NCBI RefSeq assembly: GCF_016903815.1
Contig: NZ_CP069973.1
Length of the DNA: 64,000 nt
Source: Escherichia coli
Lineage (GTDB): Bacteria > Pseudomonadota > Gammaproteobacteria > Enterobacterales > Enterobacteriaceae
Reading direction: 5' to 3' (one strand)
Below the pieces are notes generated by a model, which was not told the origin of the DNA, made no database searches, and saw nothing but the letters and a program-made list of their open reading frames with translations. The position numbers were made by a program, and so were the translations under genes. Shown one piece after another: positions 10,069 through 39,574 of the stretch. Numbering within the stretch: position 1 is the stretch's first letter; every line of letters starts with the position of its first letter.

Positions 10069-11106
10069 ATGTTTTCCGCATTGCGCCACCGTACCGCTGC
10101 CCTGGCGCTCGGCGTATGCTTTATTCTCCCCGTACACGCCTCGTCAGCTAAACCTGGCGATTTTGCTAATACTCAGGCACGACATATTGCTACTTTCTTT
10201 CCGGGACGCATGACCGGAACTCCTGCAGAAATGTTATCTGCCGATTATATTCGCCAACAGTTTCAGCAAATGGGTTATCGCAGTGATATTCGGACATTTA
10301 ATAGTCGGTATATTTATACCGCCCGCGATAATCGCAAGAGCTGGCATAACGTGACGGGAAGTACGGTGATTGCCGCTCATGAAGGCAAAGCGCCGCAGCA
10401 GATCATCATTATGGCGCATCTGGATACTTACGCCCCGCTGAGCGATGCTGACGCCGATGCCAATCTCGGCGGACTGACGTTACAAGGAATGGATGATAAC
10501 GCTGCAGGTTTAGGTGTCATGCTGGAACTGGCAGAACGCCTGAAAAATACGCCTACCGAGTATGGTATTCGATTTGTGGCGACCAGCGGCGAAGAGGAAG
10601 GGAAATTAGGCGCTGAGAATTTACTCAAGCGGATGAGTGACACCGAAAAGAAAAATACGCTGCTGGTGATTAATCTCGATAACTTAATTGTTGGCGATAA
10701 ATTGTATTTCAACAGCGGTGTAAAAACCCCTGAAGCAGTAAGGAAATTAACGCGCGACAGGGCGCTGGCAATTGCGCGTAGTCATGGAATTGCCGCAACG
10801 ACCAATCCGGGTTTGAATAAAAATTATCCGAAGGGTACTGGCTGTTGTAATGATGCCGAAGTTTTCGACAAAGCCGGTATTGCCGTACTTTCAGTAGAAG
10901 CAACAAATTGGAATCTTGGGAATAAGGATGGTTATCAGCAACGCGCAAAAACAGCTGCATTCCCTGCGGGAAATAGCTGGCATGACGTAAGACTGGATAA
11001 TCAACAACATATTGATAAGGCACTTCCTGGAAGAATAGAACGTCGCTGCCGTGATGTTATGCGGATAATGCTACCGCTGGTGAAGGAGCTGGCGAAGGCG
11101 TCTTGA
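10069..11106 (+). CDS. iap: Alkaline phosphatase isozyme conversion aminopeptidase Iap (M28 family)
   Basis: 345-aa ORF with signal peptide; directly flanks the CRISPR array as in E. coli. Confidence 0.93.
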   Translation: MFSALRHRTAALALGVCFILPVHASSAKPGDFANTQARHIATFFPGRMTGTPAEMLSADYIRQQFQQMGYRSDIRTFNSRYIYTARDNRKSWHNVTGSTVIAAHEGKAPQQIIIMAHLDTYAPLSDADADANLGGLTLQGMDDNAAGLGVMLELAERLKNTPTEYGIRFVATSGEEEGKLGAENLLKRMSDTEKKNTLLVINLDNLIVGDKLYFNSGVKTPEAVRKLTRDRALAIARSHGIAATTNPGLNKNYPKGTGCCNDAEVFDKAGIAVLSVEATNWNLGNKDGYQQRAKTAAFPAGNSWHDVRLDNQQHIDKALPGRIERRCRDVMRIMLPLVKELAKAS

Positions 11107-11126: not shown

Positions 11127-11765
11127 GGGAGTTCTACCGCAGGGGCGGGGAACTCCAAGTGATGTCCATCATCGCATCCAGTGCGTCCGGTTTATCCCCG
11201 CTGACGCGGGGAACACGTCAATAGGCGGCGTCCCGTAGCCGTCCCCTTCGGTTTATCCCCGCTGGCGCGGGGAACACGTTGAGGTCGATAAGTACGAACG
11301 GTTTCCCTGCGGTTTATCCCCGCTGGCGCGGGGAACACGATCGCCTGCTCCAGCGTCACTCCCTGCCCCTCGATTTATCCCCGCTGGCGCGGGGAACACT
11401 TCTGATACGTACTGAGGCCGGTTGTGATACGCGATTTATCCCCGCTGGCGCGGGGAACACTAACCCCCAATGAAGTTAATAAAGTCTATGGCCGATTTAT
11501 CCCCGCTGGCGCGGGGAACACATGAGATTAAAATACTCAGTACTCTTACTCGCCGATTTATCCCCGCTGGCGCGGGGAACACCAGCGTGGCGCGATAAAG
11601 CAATGTGTCTGGCTCGATTTATCCCCGCTGGCGCGGGGAACACCAGAGGCAACCGACGCGGATTCAGTAGGAAAGCGATTTATCCCCGCTGGCGCGGGGA
11701 ACACCGATAGACACTTTGCGGTCATTGTCTATTCGGCGATTTATCCCCGCTGGCGCGGGGAACAC
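11127..11765 (-). CRISPR. Type I-E CRISPR array: 10 regular 29-bp repeats plus one degenerate terminal repeat, 10 spacers of 32 bp
   Basis: Plus-strand repeat cggtttatccccgctggcgcggggaacac at 61-bp period. Repeats start ~11188, 11249, 11310, 11371, 11432, 11493, 11554, 11615, 11676, 11737; degenerate repeat ~11127..11155. AT-rich leader on the cas2 side, so transcription runs toward iap. Confidence 0.97.
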
Positions 11766-11861
11766 ACTAAGCATACATAACTGTTTTTAAACAAATTTAT
11801 TCCGCATCAACAATCTACCAACTAAATTAAAACATTTCCTTATTTTTAAAGAACAGATAAC
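11766..11861 (-). promoter_or_regulatory. CRISPR leader (AT-rich) between array and cas2
   Basis: AT-rich stretch abutting the newest repeat. Assigned by position, which matches the leader location described for E. coli I-E arrays. Confidence 0.7.
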
Positions 11862-13071
<1,210 letters not shown>

Positions 13072-13075
<4 letters not shown>

Positions 13076-13722
13076 GCCTCTGCTCCGGGTTTGATCAGCA
13101 TCAGACCACAGCCGAACGCGCGGCTTTTGCCATACCCCTGGCTCAGACGTTGCAGAAATAACCCAGGATCGGTGACCGTAAGCATCCCCGTATAATCCAC
13201 GCTACTGAACTGGATCAGTTGCCGGGAGTTTTCCCGCCGCAGTTGCTGTTGTCGGTAGGCATCGACCGAGGTATCCAGTAGTGTAAAACCGCTTCTTTCC
13301 CCCTGCGCTGCCAGCCAGTCCAGCGCCGCCTGTTGTTGATGCAACCAGACATCACTTCCTTCCACCTGCCCCCTCACCTGCCGTTTCGCCTCCATCAGCA
13401 AGTCGTGGCGTTTGCCCGCTTTACAAATTGTTGGATTCGCCCGCAGGTTGAAACAAAGGGATTGTCCGGTACGCAACTCTGGCGCAAATGGTCGGCATTC
13501 GATGGTGAAAATATCACTTTCCGCCGGGCGTTCCTGCGACAGGACAAAAAAGCGAAACGCCCCCTGGAGTTCTTCCCGACGATAAAGAAATTGCCTTTCT
13601 TTGCCGCCAGGAAAAAGATCCCACAGCCACTGATGCATTACATATTCACCGCGACCCACCAAATGCAGCAACTGCGCAGGCAAAAGCTGGCCGGTATGTA
13701 AGGTTATTCTTGAGAGGTACAT
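13072..13722 (-). CDS. casE: CRISPR pre-crRNA endoribonuclease Cas6e (CasE/Cse3)
   Basis: Track ORF 13072..13860 trimmed to internal ATG (MYLSRITLHTGQ...), about 216 aa, with AGGAGG upstream. C-terminal glycine-rich G(F/M)GCGL-type motif. Start choice is inferred. Confidence 0.85.
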
Positions 13723-14450
13723 GGTTCCTCCTTGCTGAGCCACGGCCCCTGATTGATGGTGCGTTCCCCAAACAGCCACTGCTGACGATTTAAAGGAACA
13801 TCCCGGCGACGTAATATTTTGCTCGCGACCAGGCCGTCGTGTTCCCCTTCCCACCAGCATTCATCCTGAAGTTTCGGGAGTGAGACTTTCAGTTCGCGGA
13901 AACTATCCTGATACTGTTGGTATGCGTTACGTAAGACATCAGACGCGTTGCCTTCGAGCAGTAACGGCGCAAGTGGTAACGCCAGCGGATGACTTTTTCG
14001 CCCCAGATAAAGCGGAAAAACCGGATGACGTAAACCGTCCTGCAACTGTTCAAGCCTGTAAGACGCATCGGGGGTTGTTGCCACCGCCACCATCCACCAG
14101 GCATCGGTGTAGTAGTCGCGCCGGGAGATAATCGCGCTCAGAAGATCAGGGGCGCTCAACTCTTCGCGACGGCTGAAATAACGCGCTTTACGCACCTCTT
14201 TTGGCATCTGGACCGTGTGATAATCCCGTGCCCAGCGCGGGTTACGGCTGGCGCAAACCACCAGTGAATAGTGGCGGTTAAACGCGTTTAATCGTTCGGT
14301 ATCATCACGCCGAATCCCTACCCCGGCAGCCAGCAGCCCCAGCAATGCTGAGCGCGAAGGCAGTTCATGGGTATGACGCACTTCGCCGGGGGCATCGACG
14401 CCCCAGGATGCCATTGGCCCATGAAGCTGAAAAATCAAATATTGGCTCAT
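13704..14450 (-). CDS. casD: Cascade subunit Cas5e (CasD)
   Basis: 248-aa ORF at the Cas5 position between cas7 and cas6e; N-terminus (LIFQLHGPMASWG) is Cas5-like. Assigned by family resemblance and position. Confidence 0.85.
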   Translation of the reverse strand: MSQYLIFQLHGPMASWGVDAPGEVRHTHELPSRSALLGLLAAGVGIRRDDTERLNAFNRHYSLVVCASRNPRWARDYHTVQMPKEVRKARYFSRREELSAPDLLSAIISRRDYYTDAWWMVAVATTPDASYRLEQLQDGLRHPVFPLYLGRKSHPLALPLAPLLLEGNASDVLRNAYQQYQDSFRELKVSLPKLQDECWWEGEHDGLVASKILRRRDVPLNRQQWLFGERTINQGPWLSKEEPCTSQE

Positions 14451-14460
14451 TAGCCGCCCC

Positions 14461-15516
14461 TTACGCGCAGATAAAGTCCAGCACGTCCTTCATGCTTCCC
14501 TGTTTGTTCATCACGTCAAAGCTTACGCATTCGGTCTTCTGTTCATAGACCGTATTCATATTTTCGCGAAGCGTTGTAATACGCTGCACCGCCACATCTA
14601 ACTGCCGGGTGCCATTAATGGGTTCATAGAAAGCCGCCGCCAGAGAGCGTGGTTGTTCAGTGCCTTTTTCTGCCAGCGCCCAGGAGGCGTAGGCACGGCT
14701 GGCAAAGCTGTTCTGTTTGCCGGTTGGGGAGACTTTAAGTGCGGCTTCCGTAAAGGCGCGCAAGGTCTGATTAGCTAACGCTTCGTCACCGCCGAGGTTT
14801 TCGACCAGCAGATCTTTATCGATGCAGATATAGGTGTAGAACAGCGCAGAACCGAATCCGGTTTCACCAAGATGCCCGGCACCGGCATCTTCAGAAGCCT
14901 GGCGCAAATCATCAACGGCGGTGAAAAAATCATCTTCGACAATCGTTTCACTGACACCAAATGCATGCGCGACCTGGCAGGCGGCTTCAACATTAAATTC
15001 GGGTTTATTCGCCAGCATACGACCAAACATAGCGATATCTACCGCCATGCGATCTTTACGTAACAAAGCGAGATCTTCCTCTTTTGGCGCGCGCTTTTCT
15101 TCGGCCAGTTGATGGGCCAGCGCTTTTACGGCGTCAAATTCTGCCGGGCTGATATGGACTAGCTGTTCAGTTTCGGCGTTAGTGAGCGGATCTTTTGGTT
15201 TTTTGTCGTTTTTAGCTTTCCCAAGATAATCCGCAATTTTTGCCGCCCATTCGATGGCTTTTTTCTCTTCGATGCCTTTCTCAATCAGGATAGTTGCCGC
15301 CTCACGCGCAATACGCCCACTGCGAATACCAATATGGCCCGCCAGTGCCTGTTCAAAAAGTGCAGAAGTGCGCCACGCACGTTTCAGACTTTGTGAGGAA
15401 ACGCGCAGACGCGTTGCTCCACCCAGTACCACAGTTTTTGGCGCACCGGTGTCATCACGGTTAAGGTTGGCAGCAGGGTAAGCGGTTAACAAATGAAGCT
15501 GAATAAATGTCGTCAT
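14461..15516 (-). CDS. casC: Cascade backbone subunit Cas7e (CasC/Cse4)
   Basis: 351-aa ORF; N-terminus (LHLLTAYPAANLNRDDTGAPKT) resembles E. coli CasC. Confidence 0.9.
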   Translation of the reverse strand: MTTFIQLHLLTAYPAANLNRDDTGAPKTVVLGGATRLRVSSQSLKRAWRTSALFEQALAGHIGIRSGRIAREAATILIEKGIEEKKAIEWAAKIADYLGKAKNDKKPKDPLTNAETEQLVHISPAEFDAVKALAHQLAEEKRAPKEEDLALLRKDRMAVDIAMFGRMLANKPEFNVEAACQVAHAFGVSETIVEDDFFTAVDDLRQASEDAGAGHLGETGFGSALFYTYICIDKDLLVENLGGDEALANQTLRAFTEAALKVSPTGKQNSFASRAYASWALAEKGTEQPRSLAAAFYEPINGTRQLDVAVQRITTLRENMNTVYEQKTECVSFDVMNKQGSMKDVLDFICA

Positions 15517-15530
15517 GAGATAGTCCTTTA

Positions 15531-16067
15531 TTAATTTTGTTCGTTATCGGCGTCGCCAGCCTGGTAATATTCCAGCGCCCAGCGGATACGGATAAATTCT
15601 GTTGGCCGCTGCTGGCGGCGGTGATGATTGAGCAGGTCGTCGCTCTCCTGGCACCAGCGGAAAATATCTTCTGCCAAAGAGATAAGATTGACGGAACCAT
15701 TTAATAATTTGACCGCGCGACGTAACTGACGCAGTAAATCATCAGGCGTTTTTACTGCCGACAGGCGAGTAAAACGCCCCTCCGACATTACCGCCGCCAG
15801 CTGCGCGGCAAAAGGCTGCCGTTCATCAATAGCTTTAACATTGGCGCTAACTGCGGCGACCAGCGCCAGTGCGGTAAAACGCCACTCTTGTGCTTCAATT
15901 TTCCACAAAGTGTGGGTCTGCATCAGCAGAGAACGAAACCCTTCTGACAGACAAACATCATTAACCGTTGTGCTACGCCGCAGACTGGCACGATTGCCGC
16001 GTTTTTCCTGCAACTCTTCGTGCCATTTACGCAGCGTGGCTTTGTGCTCCTCTTTTACAATACTCAT
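15531..16067 (-). CDS. casB: Cascade small subunit Cse2 (CasB)
   Basis: 178-aa ORF between cse1 and cas7. Assigned by position and size; I do not recognise the sequence itself. Confidence 0.8.
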   Translation of the reverse strand: MSIVKEEHKATLRKWHEELQEKRGNRASLRRSTTVNDVCLSEGFRSLLMQTHTLWKIEAQEWRFTALALVAAVSANVKAIDERQPFAAQLAAVMSEGRFTRLSAVKTPDDLLRQLRRAVKLLNGSVNLISLAEDIFRWCQESDDLLNHHRRQQRPTEFIRIRWALEYYQAGDADNEQN

Positions 16068-17626
16068 TCAGCAGCCTCCTGCTTTTTCTCCCTGGCGGCT
16101 TTAGCATTTTGCTTCTCCGCCGATGTTGTAAAATATTTCTTGCGCGCGGTCATGACGCGTTTCAAATCAACGGGCTCATATGGATTGGTGAAGACACGCT
16201 CGTCAAAATCCTGACGCGCGAATAACCAAATTTCCTTTTGCCATTTGCTGAGTAATTCATCCGCATCCTGACCTTCTTCAATGTGGCGCACTAACCTCAG
16301 GAAGCGATGCTGAGTTTTGTTCCAGAAGTCGATATCCACAAAACTGAAATCACCCCGTGCACCTTTTGGATCGGAGAACCACGCTTCTTTCAATGCACTC
16401 CGTAACAGACTCAGAATCCGTGAAGCCGTTTGCGCAGCCAGCCGCAGCTTCGGTATCTGGCCTTCTTTTTTATCGAGCAGCAGCGGAAAATGGTGTTCGT
16501 ACCAACAGCGCGCTTTCATGTTGTCAAAATCATAACCAAATCCCCACAGGCCCACTTTTGCCTGCTTGAGACTGCTGGCATTAAAGAGTTTCACCACCAG
16601 CGCGGGAAGTTCCGTATTGTTTTCTGATTTACCCGTTTCGATAAGGCCTAACCAGTCGCGCCAGATTAAACCGCCTGGTTGTGGTTTGACCGAGTAAAAC
16701 TCGCCGCCCTCTTTAAGGGGTACACGGTAAGGCGTTAAGGGATGCTGCCACATGGCATAATTCGCGCCGTAATTTTTGGTCGTCATCAGGCTCAGGAGCG
16801 CGTCGTTCTGCTCGCCGCAAATATCGCAGTTGCCGACTGTCGTGGTATTAAAATCAATACGAATACGCCGCGGCATTCCCCAGTACGCCTGGAGTTTATT
16901 AACCTGATCATCGGTTACCACCGCACCGGCCAGTTCGCTGGTACGCGTCGGGCCAAGCCAGGGGAAAACCAGATCGTCAAATTTTTTGGGTAGCGGTAAG
17001 TCGGCTTCGTCCTGCGGCATCACATTGAGCCACAGTTTGCGCCACAAGGGCGTTTGTTGATTGCCCTGATATTCCTGTAATTCAATCAGAGTGGTCATCG
17101 GCCCACCGCCGCGTAAACCGGTGCGGTAGCCTTTACCACCTGACGGCGCATTTAACTGTAGGGAGAACAGAGCTAACGCAGAACAATGTGGGCACAGGTA
17201 TTCCGTTACACCACGCTTGATAAAGTGGTCTTTATTAAACTTCGTTGTTTGAGCGCCGGGAATCTCAGGCAGTAGCGAAGCGACCTGAACTTTATCTCCT
17301 GTGAGCGCCTCGAAATCCTGCATAAATGAAGGGGAATCTGGCCCAAACTGGAAAGCGTGTTCTAAGGACAGCAATGCTTCCCGTAGCTTTTCAGATTCCA
17401 GTCCGTCTTCCCAGATATCATCCCAACGACGATGATCTTTTGGCGCAAAGCTGGTTTGTAGTAGCCCCAGCAAAAACTGCCATGCCGCTCCCTGGAGATC
17501 TGCCCGTGGCGCAGCAATATCGACAACATTTTCATCCGCCAGATCGACAGGCGCCAGTTTGCCTGTCGTTCCGTCTTTATAACGAACGGGCAACCACGGG
17601 GTTGTCAGAAGTGAAAACGAGTTCAT
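16064..17626 (-). CDS. casA: Cascade large subunit Cse1 (CasA)
   Basis: Track ORF 16064..17695 trimmed to internal ATG (MNSFSLLTTPWLPVRY...) with GAGAGGA upstream, about 520 aa. Assigned by position and N-terminal resemblance; start uncertain (alternative ATG 6 bp upstream). Confidence 0.82.
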   Translation of the reverse strand: MNSFSLLTTPWLPVRYKDGTTGKLAPVDLADENVVDIAAPRADLQGAAWQFLLGLLQTSFAPKDHRRWDDIWEDGLESEKLREALLSLEHAFQFGPDSPSFMQDFEALTGDKVQVASLLPEIPGAQTTKFNKDHFIKRGVTEYLCPHCSALALFSLQLNAPSGGKGYRTGLRGGGPMTTLIELQEYQGNQQTPLWRKLWLNVMPQDEADLPLPKKFDDLVFPWLGPTRTSELAGAVVTDDQVNKLQAYWGMPRRIRIDFNTTTVGNCDICGEQNDALLSLMTTKNYGANYAMWQHPLTPYRVPLKEGGEFYSVKPQPGGLIWRDWLGLIETGKSENNTELPALVVKLFNASSLKQAKVGLWGFGYDFDNMKARCWYEHHFPLLLDKKEGQIPKLRLAAQTASRILSLLRSALKEAWFSDPKGARGDFSFVDIDFWNKTQHRFLRLVRHIEEGQDADELLSKWQKEIWLFARQDFDERVFTNPYEPVDLKRVMTARKKYFTTSAEKQNAKAAREKKQEAAE

Positions 17627-17723
17627 ACGCATCCTCTCGTAAAAAAGACCATCCCAGGTCGGTTGTCCATCATTCCATCCTTTTCGGTGTATCAACTATT
17701 CAGAGAGCCCTGTCGCAGGCATC

Positions 17724-20423
17724 TCAACCAACCTTGCCAGTCAATCCTTCCATAGCCGAATACCCGCAACTTTCGTCATCGGTAACTAAAATCACGTTTG
17801 CCATCTCCGGATCTTTCCGCTGTTCAATGCACCACTGCCTGAACGCTTCCCCTTCCAGTAAAGAAAACTCATCCCGATGTTTTTTCCACCAGCTTCGACG
17901 CACTCTGACAACGCTCATTTCCCATGCGTGAGCACCGTTGGCATAAGGCTTCACCACACTGGCAATACAGGTAGCCAGCCACAGGGAAACAGACTCCTCC
18001 GCCAGACGTGTCGACAGCTTTTCCGGAAGGTAATCGTTGATATTGGCGGCATAGCCAGGCCTGAAGTTCAGCACAAACTTTTTAGCCATTGCGCGATCGC
18101 AGTAATATTTGCCCACTTGCTCCTGCTCGCTGCGGGCAAATCCTTCCGGCATTACCACGTCCTCACCGTAGACTGATTCAATAAGAAGGCGGGCTGCGTG
18201 TGGCATTTGAATAGCGCCTTGCTCACGCAGTACACGCTGCGTCAGCCAGATTCGTCCATGATCGGGATAGACATATGCACTGTTACGCATGGCACTGCCG
18301 AACCATTCGTCACCTGGAGCGTCGTCCCAGACGGGGGCCAGAATCAGCAATTCAGGAGGGGAACGCTCGTCTTTTCCGTCACGCTTTAACTGACCATTAA
18401 TATCGCGGATATGCCGCTGTAATCGCCCCGCTCGCTGGATCAGCAAATCAACAGGGGCCAGGTCGGAAATCATTTCGTCCATATCGCAATCAACGCTCGA
18501 CTCTAAGACCTGAGTACAAATGAGGACTTTTCCGGCACGCTGTGAGCTATCTTCTTTACCGAAGCGTGCCAGCGTTTCCGTTTCAATTCGCTGGCGATCG
18601 CTAAAAGCAAAGCGGCTATGAAACAGAGAAAGGCTGGAAGCAGGAATGACGCCGCGGGCAAGCAACTGACGATAAACCTTAATAGCGTCATCGACAGAAT
18701 TCCGGATCCAGGCGATGCATTTCCCCTGACTTACTGCCGATTCGATACGCGCAATACATTCTTGTTCGCTATGAAGCCAACCCACGCTCACGCTACGCTC
18801 AACGTCTTTGCGCGTCGCTACCCGGTGTGAATGCACATCGGATTTCGTAACGTGCGTCAGCCAGGGGTAATCATCCTTTTCCAGGAACGGAGCTTCTTGC
18901 TGGCCCTCTGTACCACGCGCAAAGGCAGCAACGAGTTTGTCGCACTGCTGTTGAGATAACGTGGCAGAAAGCAAAATGACGCTGTTTCCGCCACGCGCCT
19001 GCCGCTCGATCAGCCCTTCAAGAATGCATGACATGTAAGCGTCACAGGCATGGATCTCATCAGCCAGCAGGATTTTGTTACTCAGTCCCAGAAGCCGCAG
19101 ATTATTATGTTTGAACGGCATCACAGCCATCATCGCCTGATCCAGCGTGCCGACGCCAATTTCAGCCAGTAGCGCCTTCTTGTTACTGTCGGCAAACCAG
19201 GCCGCACATCCCTGACTGAACGTTTGTTCATCCGGTTCTTCTGACCCGACTAAATCACCGGACCAGAGTGATTCATTAAAGCGGTCCATTAATGTTCGGG
19301 CACTGTGTGCCAGCACCAGGCTGGGGCGGGACTCTGGCGAATAGAAAGCAAGCCAGGTTTTGACCAGTCGATCGTACATGGCATTGGCCGTTGCCATTGT
19401 TGGCAGGCCAAAAAACAAACCCTGCGCTTTACCCGCAGCCATCAACCTGTGCGCCAGGATAAGCGCCGCTTCCGTTTTACCTGCGCCAGTCACATCTTCC
19501 AGAATAAATAACTGTGGCCCTGGCTGGCTGATATCCAGATCCAGCACCTTTTGCTGTAACGGTGTCGGATTCTCAATAAAAGGAAACAGCGTATTAATTC
19601 CGGTGAAAGGCGCGACTTTTGCTTTTAGAGGAAAGACGGTTAAGGCGTTTTGAGCCTGAACTAAAGTTTTCTGCCAGTAACCTTTAATATCCATTGGGTG
19701 TGCGACGCGTGGAAAAAATCGCGTTGACGAACCCGTCCAGTCTGCGAGCACGACGGTTGCAGAGATATACCAGGAAAGGTGTTTTATAAGTTCAATGCCC
19801 TCATCATCATCCCAGAATGCGGGGATCTCTATGAGCGGAAACAGTGGTTTGATTTCAAGAAGAAAATCTCGCGCGGCAGCTTTGTCTTCAGGCAGAAAAT
19901 TATCCAGTTCATCAATACGGTCAGGCGGGCGACCATGATGCCCGGTAGTTATGGGCATCCACATCTCCATCACCCGTTTAAGTTTGCGCGGAGAGAGTGA
20001 AGATGAAGGAAGCAATTCTTCGTATTCACTTAAATAATGATGCCACAGCCAGTAGCCCAGCGTTGAATGAGAGATCTTTTCGTAATTCTTTCTTGCGCCT
20101 TCCGGAACCTTGAGTTGTGGGTGCAGGTAAAGTTGCTGAAAAGAGCGGGCAAATTTTCCAGTATCGTGCCAGCACAATAGCCAGGCGAAAAATTGTGCTG
20201 CCTGCTCCGTATCAGCGAAACCTAGTTGACGAAAATAGTCAGTCAGCCCGAAGCAATTGCTTTTAACCATTAAATAGCCCATCGCGGCTACATCCAGCGA
20301 ATGCCAGCAAAGAAGGTGATAGTCGTCGCCCCCGTCTTTCTCGCCGCGTCGGGTTTTTCCCCAGAAATCAAAAAAAGTCACAATATTTTTATCCTTCAGT
20401 AAACTTAAAGGATATTTACGCAT
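17724..20423 (-). CDS. cas3: CRISPR-associated nuclease/helicase Cas3 (HD nuclease + DExH helicase)
   Basis: 899-aa ORF with N-terminal HD-like region (HSLDVAAMGY), Walker A (GAGKT) and DEIH box; ATG start. Confidence 0.95.
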   Translation of the reverse strand: MRKYPLSLLKDKNIVTFFDFWGKTRRGEKDGGDDYHLLCWHSLDVAAMGYLMVKSNCFGLTDYFRQLGFADTEQAAQFFAWLLCWHDTGKFARSFQQLYLHPQLKVPEGARKNYEKISHSTLGYWLWHHYLSEYEELLPSSSLSPRKLKRVMEMWMPITTGHHGRPPDRIDELDNFLPEDKAAARDFLLEIKPLFPLIEIPAFWDDDEGIELIKHLSWYISATVVLADWTGSSTRFFPRVAHPMDIKGYWQKTLVQAQNALTVFPLKAKVAPFTGINTLFPFIENPTPLQQKVLDLDISQPGPQLFILEDVTGAGKTEAALILAHRLMAAGKAQGLFFGLPTMATANAMYDRLVKTWLAFYSPESRPSLVLAHSARTLMDRFNESLWSGDLVGSEEPDEQTFSQGCAAWFADSNKKALLAEIGVGTLDQAMMAVMPFKHNNLRLLGLSNKILLADEIHACDAYMSCILEGLIERQARGGNSVILLSATLSQQQCDKLVAAFARGTEGQQEAPFLEKDDYPWLTHVTKSDVHSHRVATRKDVERSVSVGWLHSEQECIARIESAVSQGKCIAWIRNSVDDAIKVYRQLLARGVIPASSLSLFHSRFAFSDRQRIETETLARFGKEDSSQRAGKVLICTQVLESSVDCDMDEMISDLAPVDLLIQRAGRLQRHIRDINGQLKRDGKDERSPPELLILAPVWDDAPGDEWFGSAMRNSAYVYPDHGRIWLTQRVLREQGAIQMPHAARLLIESVYGEDVVMPEGFARSEQEQVGKYYCDRAMAKKFVLNFRPGYAANINDYLPEKLSTRLAEESVSLWLATCIASVVKPYANGAHAWEMSVVRVRRSWWKKHRDEFSLLEGEAFRQWCIEQRKDPEMANVILVTDDESCGYSAMEGLTGKVG

Positions 20424-38311: not shown

Positions 38312-38449
38312 TGGTTATCCCCGCTGGCGCGGGGAACATAAGTTCGACAACTTAAAAAATGATAACAAGTCCGGTTTATCCCCGCTGATGCAGGGAACAT
38401 AATAAAAACTTTAACTAGTTCGGTTTATCCCTGTTTTTACAAGGAATAT
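38312..38449 (-). CRISPR. Degenerate CRISPR remnant (three decayed I-E-like repeats)
   Basis: tggttatccccgctggcgcggggaaca (~38312), cggtttatccccgctgatgcagggaacat (~38372), cggtttatccctgtttttacaaggaatat (~38421); irregular spacing; AT-rich sequence follows. Confidence 0.7.
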
Positions 38450-38902: not shown

Positions 38903-39236
38903 TGGTTTATTCCCGCTGGTGCGGGGAACTCATCAGTGATATCCAACATTGCGGAGCTAAACGCGGTTTATCCCCGCTGGCGCGGGGAACTCTAATATCC
39001 CTGGCGATAATCAACCGGCTTACTCGGTTTATCCCCGCTGGCGCGGGGAACTCGAGAGCGAGGGGAGATTCCGGCAGGGCGTGCACGGTTTATCCCCGCT
39101 GGCGCGGGGAACTCGCGGGTATGCTCCGCTCCGTGTTCGACAAACTCGGTTTATCCCCGCTGGCGCGGGGAACTCAAGGTCGCGGGGACGCCACGGGCAG
39201 TCAATGTCGGTTTATCCCCGCTGGCGCGGGGAACTC
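38903..39236 (-). CRISPR. Second type I-E CRISPR array: 6 repeats (first degenerate), 5 spacers of 32 bp
   Basis: Repeat cggtttatccccgctggcgcggggaactc at 61-bp period, starting ~38903 (degenerate tggtttattcccgctggtgcggggaactc), 38964, 39025, 39086, 39147, 39208. AT-rich leader on the queE side. Confidence 0.95.
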
Positions 39237-39574
39237 ACTAAACATAACCTATTATTAATTATTGATTTTTTAAGTCAGTCACAATCTACCAACTTAACAG
39301 AAACACACAAACAACACATCCATTATGTTAAAGAGCACTTAATTCATTGATTGAAAAGCCAAATATTTAAAGTAATTCTATACCGACTAAAATCCACCAA
39401 ACTCCGACGTAATAATTTTCACTCCAACGAAAAATTAACGCCACAGAATTTGTAGAAAATGATAATGATTAGTCCAGGATGGGCAAAATGGAGGTTTTTT
39501 AGAGGCGACAAAGAATATAAATGAGTAGAAGTCTTTACAGGTTCCACCCATTTATAACGCTTATAAATGTGTAA
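39237..39574 (-). promoter_or_regulatory. Probable CRISPR leader (AT-rich) for the second array
   Basis: About 340 bp AT-rich between the newest repeat and the queE stop; same repeat orientation as the cas-adjacent array. Confidence 0.55.

Follow-up and report, generated by a model that had tools for sequence, protein, structure and literature searches.

Organization of the array and its surroundings

The window, namely, the full 64,000-nucleotide stretch of Escherichia coli DNA considered here (contig NZ_CP069973.1), contains a CRISPR array found between iap, a plus strand gene ending at position 11106, and a set of minus strand cas genes. Based on predicted ORFs and the RefSeq annotation of strain 7/2, which the 10.4 kb from iap to cas3 match base for base, this set comprises the adaptation genes cas2e (11862-12155) and cas1e (12152-13075), followed by cas6e, cas5e, cas7e, casB, casA, and cas3 (13072-20423). 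Re-extraction of the array revealed ten partly palindromic 29-nt repeats (R1 to R10) starting at 11188, 11249, and so on to 11737, together spanning 11188-11765 and separated by unique 32-nt spacers with an exact 61-nt period. At the trailer end, a degenerate terminal repeat (11127-11155, minus strand) that differs from the consensus at 10 of 29 positions remains in the same 61-nt register. On the cas side, an AT-rich leader (11766-11861, minus strand), of which the first 100 nt are identical across related arrays, lies between the newest repeat and cas2e.

By these sequence features, the array belongs to type I-E and represents the iap-adjacent CRISPR locus of E. coli; it is predicted to be transcribed from the minus strand and to yield 61-nt crRNAs upon Cas6e cleavage. 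Given the order and orientation of the genes and the position of the leader, the minus strand would be the crRNA strand, with high coordinates holding the newest units. The polarity proposed in the initial annotation was thus borne out, with the leader being followed by minus strand cas2e and then by cas1e. The array shares with E. coli CRISPR1 (alias CRISPR2.1) its position between iap and cas2e, the 29-nt repeat consensus, the spacer length and period, the AT-rich leader, and the degenerate terminal repeat. It differs from the usual CRISPR1 in that seven repeats carry a C-to-U change at repeat position 27 of the crRNA strand, while on the plus strand its repeats end in ...AACAC, as compared to ...AACTC in K-12. 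Scans of the array against Rfam, at the gathering threshold and at E<=1, returned no match; as that library holds no matching family, such scans are uninformative on the array.

When the five Cascade proteins (window 13072-17626) were compared with K-12 CasA-E, CasA, CasC, CasD, and CasE proved to be 21-34% identical where aligned, and CasB gave no significant match to its K-12 counterpart. Cas1 and Cas2 are about 85% identical to the K-12 proteins, with the same repeat. Judged from these identities, the cas set of the window is the second E. coli I-E variant. In the related all-G arrays of loci L018 (NZ_AP022173.1) and L019, the annotation lists cas1e as a pseudogene interrupted by an internal stop, and in L018 iap is truncated by an IS5 element.

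Elsewhere in the window, a two-repeat remnant array is found at 38314-38400, and a second array, corresponding to the CRISPR2 locus and comprising six repeats ending in ...AACTC and a leader of its own, is found at 38906-39237. The repeats at both sites all start with CGG or TGG, such that the variant described below is present in none.

A single-base variant divides the repeats into two blocks

The three oldest regular repeats, R1 to R3, start with CGGTTTAT (G-type) and the seven repeats closest to the leader, R4 to R10, start with CGATTTAT (A-type), as had been described in the initial annotation and as re-extraction confirmed. R2 (11249-11277) and R3 (11310-11338), which flank spacer S2 (11249-11338 for the three, minus strand), are both canonical (CGGTTTATCCCCGCTGGCGCGGGGAACAC), and the boundary spacer S3 (11339-11370, minus strand) has a G-type repeat on its trailer side and an A-type repeat on its leader side. 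The seven A-type repeats, reading ...GGGGATAAATCG on the crRNA strand, together with spacers S4 to S9 occupy 11371-11765 (minus strand), with the variant A being found at 11373, 11434, 11495, 11556, 11617, 11678, and 11739. Under random placement, a perfect 3+7 split with the observed polarity has a probability of 1/120. The possibility of an assembly artefact was rejected, the same array being present in more than 100 independent genomes.

R1 (11188-11216, minus strand), the oldest regular repeat, is the sole repeat of the window array to contain CTGACG instead of CTGGCG. This change and the degeneracy of the terminal repeat had been taken as signs of decay in old units. Both features are real, but the R1 change does not represent recent decay, since all related arrays inspected share it and since it lies in the hairpin loop; on the crRNA strand, it corresponds to C13 to U, inside the hairpin tetraloop. 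The same CTGACG variant forms a run in a Salmonella array listed in Table S6 of PMC2886076, and the first repeat of K-12 reads CTGATG. Among loci L018, L019, and L020, CTGACG appears twice in WP7-S17-ESBL-01 and RM14516, with three extra old spacers lying between the two copies. This doubling suggests that the window array has also lost old units.

Comparison with related arrays

For comparison, arrays were parsed from related complete genomes, with the majority being identical to that of the window. BLAST searches placed the window array, at >=99% identity, in about 114 complete E. coli genomes; this and the other genome counts given here are E-value-thresholded BLAST counts, of which a subset of arrays was individually parsed. 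In all ten A-type chromosomal arrays so parsed (10/10, including the window, L001-L006, L015, and L017), the A-type repeats stand together in a single block next to the leader, and none is intermingled with G-type repeats. A/G differences not partitioned by position had been named in the initial annotation as evidence against its reading; such differences were not seen in the arrays parsed, and the idea of templating is thus upheld. The block is retained in alleles from which S5, S7, S8, or S3 to S8 are missing. Single spacers have been lost from YDC107 (S5), EC2202095 (S7), and PEC399 (S8), while in the SCEC020023 type (L006), represented by about 29 genomes, S3 to S8 are gone and the boundary between G- and A-type repeats falls at S9. 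AR_0137 carries a private C-to-T change in R3. In total, at least four independent deletions were seen among about 150 genomes, along with only one other repeat point mutation.

A second family of A-type arrays was identified in JNEC-KY178 (L005) and XJ6.1 (L015). These arrays have S1 (with one mismatch) and S2 in common with the window, followed by four other spacers, X1 to X4, between G-type repeats, and then by an A-type block of their own, with spacers Y1 to Y3 in XJ6.1 and Y1 to Y4 in JNEC-KY178, i.e., one more at the leader end. On the iap side, 1-2 SNPs in 1400 nt distinguish the window family from the JNEC-KY178/XJ6.1 family, and the all-G arrays of SC418 (L007) and RM14516 (L019) are 12-16 SNPs away from both. 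BLAST searches with the L005 and L007 arrays recovered 2 and 1 genomes only, respectively; a broader BLAST search at E 1e-15 was swamped by in-register alignments of repeats alone.

The array was also seen in association with a resistance determinant. In Nord122 (L004, NZ_CP139853.1), an ISEcp1-blaCTX-M-15-WbuC(orf477) unit lies inside spacer S6. In the 96 kb plasmid pR11-698-2 (L008, NZ_CP107157.1), a fragment of the array comprising 3 nt of S3, R4-S4-R5-S5-R6, and 11 nt of S6 (window 11368-11532) is fused to such a unit, with 2165 nt being identical between the plasmid and Nord122. ISEcp1 seems to have mobilized part of the chromosomal CRISPR array to the plasmid, making the array fragment a tag for the source of the resistance unit.

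Distribution of the A-type repeat

An exact 69-mer comprising the A-type repeat and 40 nt of leader was found in 148 of 5426 complete genomes, and the canonical repeat joined to the same 40 nt of leader was found in 1470 genomes, such that the A variant accounts for about 9% of arrays with this leader. In 145 of the 148 A-type genomes, S9 adjoins the A-type repeat; two more are JNEC-KY178 and XJ6.1, placing 147 of the 148 in the two families described above. Among 100,044 species-representative genomes, none belongs to a species that uses the A-type repeat as consensus, with the repeat appearing only singly, in Pluralibacter gergoviae and in an Erwinia MAG. Metagenome contigs yielded three A-type singletons and one gut contig with the window array, but no new A-type alleles; that contig, of human gut origin (L012), holds the leader-proximal end of the array, namely, S6 to S9, five A-type repeats, and the leader. 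Searching the literature for ATAAATCG, an 8-mer, brought up unrelated papers only. With 148 carriers in 5426 complete genomes, the variant is a convenient lineage marker.

This distribution bears on the possibility that the array is a chimera, in which recombination joined an all-A array of another lineage to the trailer portion of an all-G array; the boundary would then mark the crossover point rather than a mutation. E. coli CRISPR loci are known to be exchanged by recombination, and S3 and S8 are found in unrelated arrays. Nonetheless, no all-A donor is present in the data, as all but one of the 148 genomes fall within two families with G-type trailers, and the 100,044 representative genomes and the metagenomes offered the A-type repeat solely as singletons or as the window array. 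A chimeric origin is accordingly considered highly improbable.

Spacer targets and recurrence

When the spacers were compared with phage sequences, no match was obtained, and among plasmids a protospacer was found for S6 only, the remaining matches being copies of array spacers. The S6 protospacer (for window 11522-11553) is flanked by an ATG PAM and lies at the start of a gene annotated as 'lysozyme inhibitor LprI family'. It is carried by roughly 450 E. coli chromosomes and is also found in Klebsiella/Raoultella plasmids, mostly of ~105-116 kb (91-140 kb overall). As some genomes gave two hits in the S6 search, self-targeting by S6 is possible. S4 (11400-11431) has a one-mismatch counterpart in a prophage portal gene, likewise flanked by an ATG PAM; loci L022 and L023 cover these S6 and S4 targets.

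Two spacers recur in other arrays. S3 is also found in the ygcE-queE (CRISPR2) array of 88COLEC (L016), and S8 (11644-11675) is the penultimate spacer of the otherwise unrelated all-G CRISPR1 array of SC418 (L007); both copies lie between canonical repeats. The phage and plasmid searches offered no explanation for this recurrence, which would reflect either uptake of one protospacer more than once or exchange among arrays, and which fits the 'multiple acquisitions' described in PMC2886076.

Copying of the leader-adjacent repeat

The division of the repeats into two blocks can be accounted for by a single plus strand G-to-A substitution (C27 to U on the crRNA strand) that would have become fixed in the repeat adjacent to the leader. 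During spacer acquisition, Cas1-Cas2 would split the leader-adjacent repeat, with each strand templating one daughter repeat. Because templating takes place at the leader-adjacent repeat, all repeats added later would carry A, whereas older repeats would keep G. That new repeats are copied from the leader-proximal repeat, as had been assumed in the initial annotation, is well supported, both by the leader-end A block in 10/10 arrays and by experiment, since in E. coli BL21-AI each newly added repeat invariably bore the label of repeat 1 (Yosef 2012; PMC3384332). In that study, as in the window, a single-base difference marks the copied repeat. There, however, the label was placed at position 2 (GAG vs GTG) of an engineered two-repeat array, whereas the label considered here is natural, lies at position 27, and can be followed in two wild lineages, over at least 6+4 acquisitions.

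Runs of adjacent repeats that share a single-base variant were likewise described by Touchon & Rocha 2010 (PMC2886076, Table S6), who read stretches of repeat variants in Escherichia and Salmonella as duplication of the adjacent repeat, and who also reported losses of units and instances in which one spacer was putatively acquired several times. The S. Schwarzengrund example given in that study involves the variants CTGACG and GGAATAC, as distinct from the window variant at position 27, in the 5' handle. As such, the phenomenon and its interpretation are already known; the scientific gain is small, consisting of a clean repetition in nature of a mechanism already described, over about ten acquisitions in two wild lineages.

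The two sister lineages hold different spacers inside their A-type blocks (S3/S4 to S9 vs Y1 to Y4), as expected of acquisitions made after the mutation, and the S6 protospacer (exact) and the S4 protospacer (one mismatch) both present a functional ATG PAM. Together, these sequence comparisons indicate that the spacers of the A-type block are bona fide acquisitions subsequent to the mutation. The differing spacers, the 61-nt register, which all units keep, and the ATG PAMs are hallmarks of ordinary Cas1-Cas2 adaptation, and show that the A-type repeat can serve both for integration and for templating.

An alternative is that gene conversion between neighboring repeats spread the A independently of acquisition. 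Recombination between repeats clearly occurs, as reflected in the deletions, yet concerted evolution of this sort gives no reason for a leader-anchored block in two families with different spacers and would not be expected to spare all trailer repeats in every allele. Moreover, arrays with the same spacer order but differing numbers of A-type repeats were not seen. This explanation is thus hardly credible, and copying of a substituted leader-adjacent repeat is retained as the account of the block.

Timing and number of origins of the substitution

According to the initial annotation, the substitution dates from the time at which the third repeat was the one adjoining the leader. Such timing is not secure, as the spacer at the G/A boundary is not the same in all descendants, being S3 in the window, S9 in L006, and X4 in L005 and L015. 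Because the boundary moves with deletions, its present position is no proof of an origin at the third repeat. Comparison of the alleles shows that the mutation can be dated only to after S2 and before S4 and Y1. The boundary is thus a record of relative order, separating units older than the mutation from those younger, rather than of array length at the time of mutation. This serves as a caution that deletions between repeats shift variant boundaries, so that relative order alone should be read from them.

The allele data can be reconciled by a single substitution in the common ancestor of the window family (S3 to S9) and the JNEC-KY178/XJ6.1 family (Y1 to Y4), with each family subsequently gaining spacers of its own. 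The most parsimonious ancestor would have held S0-S1-S2-X1-X2-X3-X4 and then the mutated repeat, and the window lineage would have lost X1 to X4 through recombination between the repeat following S2 and the repeat preceding S3. With the variable base being the third of the plus strand repeat, nearly any crossover between these two repeats yields a G-type hybrid, as is indeed seen before S3. Deletions of spacers across arrays are routinely allowed for when arrays are reconstructed (PMC11472070). The intermediate array expected from this scheme, with X1 to X4 followed by A-type repeats and S3, was not found among the 5426 genomes.

The timing originally proposed can be kept if S3 was the leader-end spacer of the array at the time of the mutation, with the repeat after the third regular one adjoining the leader, and if the window allele is ancestral, in which case the A-type block of L005 and L015 would stem from an independent identical mutation or from recombination that imported X1 to X4. 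The G-S3-A arrangement of the window, with no trace of extra spacers, and the restriction of X1 to X4 to two genomes are in line with this scenario. It nonetheless calls for a second identical mutation or a replacement involving two crossovers where one deletion would do, in a lineage in which deletions are demonstrably common (at least four events) and in which the iap flanks of the two families scarcely differ. Such an origin is accordingly judged to be improbable, although less so than either a chimera or gene conversion.

A single origin followed by deletion of X1 to X4 is instead preferred and, from the allele comparison, is very likely to be correct, since one mutation and one deletion suffice and since deletions are frequent, whereas just one other repeat point mutation was seen. 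With the two A-type families being so close on the iap side (1-2 SNPs), identity by descent offers the simplest view of their shared variant. Taken as a whole, the explanation that combines substitution in the leader repeat, templated copying, single origin, loss of X1 to X4, and normal processing of the transcript is held with good confidence.

Position of the variant in the crRNA

On the crRNA strand, the repeat reads GUGUUCCCCGCGCCAGCGGGGAUAAA[C/U]CG, with the variant being a C-to-U change at position 27. In the predicted fold of the repeat, positions 5-11 pair with positions 16-22 to give a 7 bp stem and a tetraloop, with the same hairpin energy, -15.1 kcal/mol, for the variant repeat as for the canonical one. 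Cas6e cuts after G21 to leave the 5' handle AUAAACCG (PMC4288178). Repeat position 27 therefore lies six bases past the cut and corresponds to 5'-handle position -3 of the crRNA carrying the next downstream spacer. The earlier placement of the variant in the 3' handle near the base of the stem was thus wrong. Of the guides predicted from the array, seven (S3 to S9) would carry the handle AUAAAUCG and three (S0 to S2) would carry AUAAACCG.

An effect on Cas6e processing, also raised in the initial annotation, is unlikely, as the hairpin energy is unchanged and as K-12 repeat mutants at -1, -2, or -3 are processed normally (Westra et al. 2013; PMC3764190). Normal processing is indeed to be expected of a variant that lies outside the Cas6e hairpin.

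Handle position -3 has, by contrast, been tied to interference. Structures of Cascade reveal base-specific contacts at -7, -5, -3, and -2 (PMC4288178). In K-12, complexes formed normally with the C-3G change, but DNA binding and phage resistance were lost, leading the authors to conclude that C is required at -3 (PMC3764190). The change in the window falls at one of the handle positions, -3 and -2, at which the interference-defective K-12 mutants were altered. Still, although the position is common to both, the published change is C-3G and the natural change is C-3U, and the K-12 mutants (PMC3764190) were studied with a different Cascade, that of the window being a divergent variant. Searches of the literature for C-3U or C-3T returned no match, nor was C-3U found in the text or supplements of Westra et al. 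2013.

By analogy with the base-specific reading of position -3 in K-12, interference by the seven guides S3 to S9 may be weakened. That a C-3U handle would weaken or abolish target binding by Cascade is offered as a tentative proposal, one considered somewhat unlikely to hold.

Implications

Should U at position -3 of the 5' handle not be tolerated by this second E. coli Cascade type, seven of the ten guides would be dead for interference in an array that still acquired spacers. The variant would then represent a separation-of-function allele found in the wild, reflecting naive, PAM-aware adaptation that proceeded without selection for interference. An A-type repeat occupies the array's leader end in about 148 complete E. 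coli genomes, mostly those of clinical isolates.
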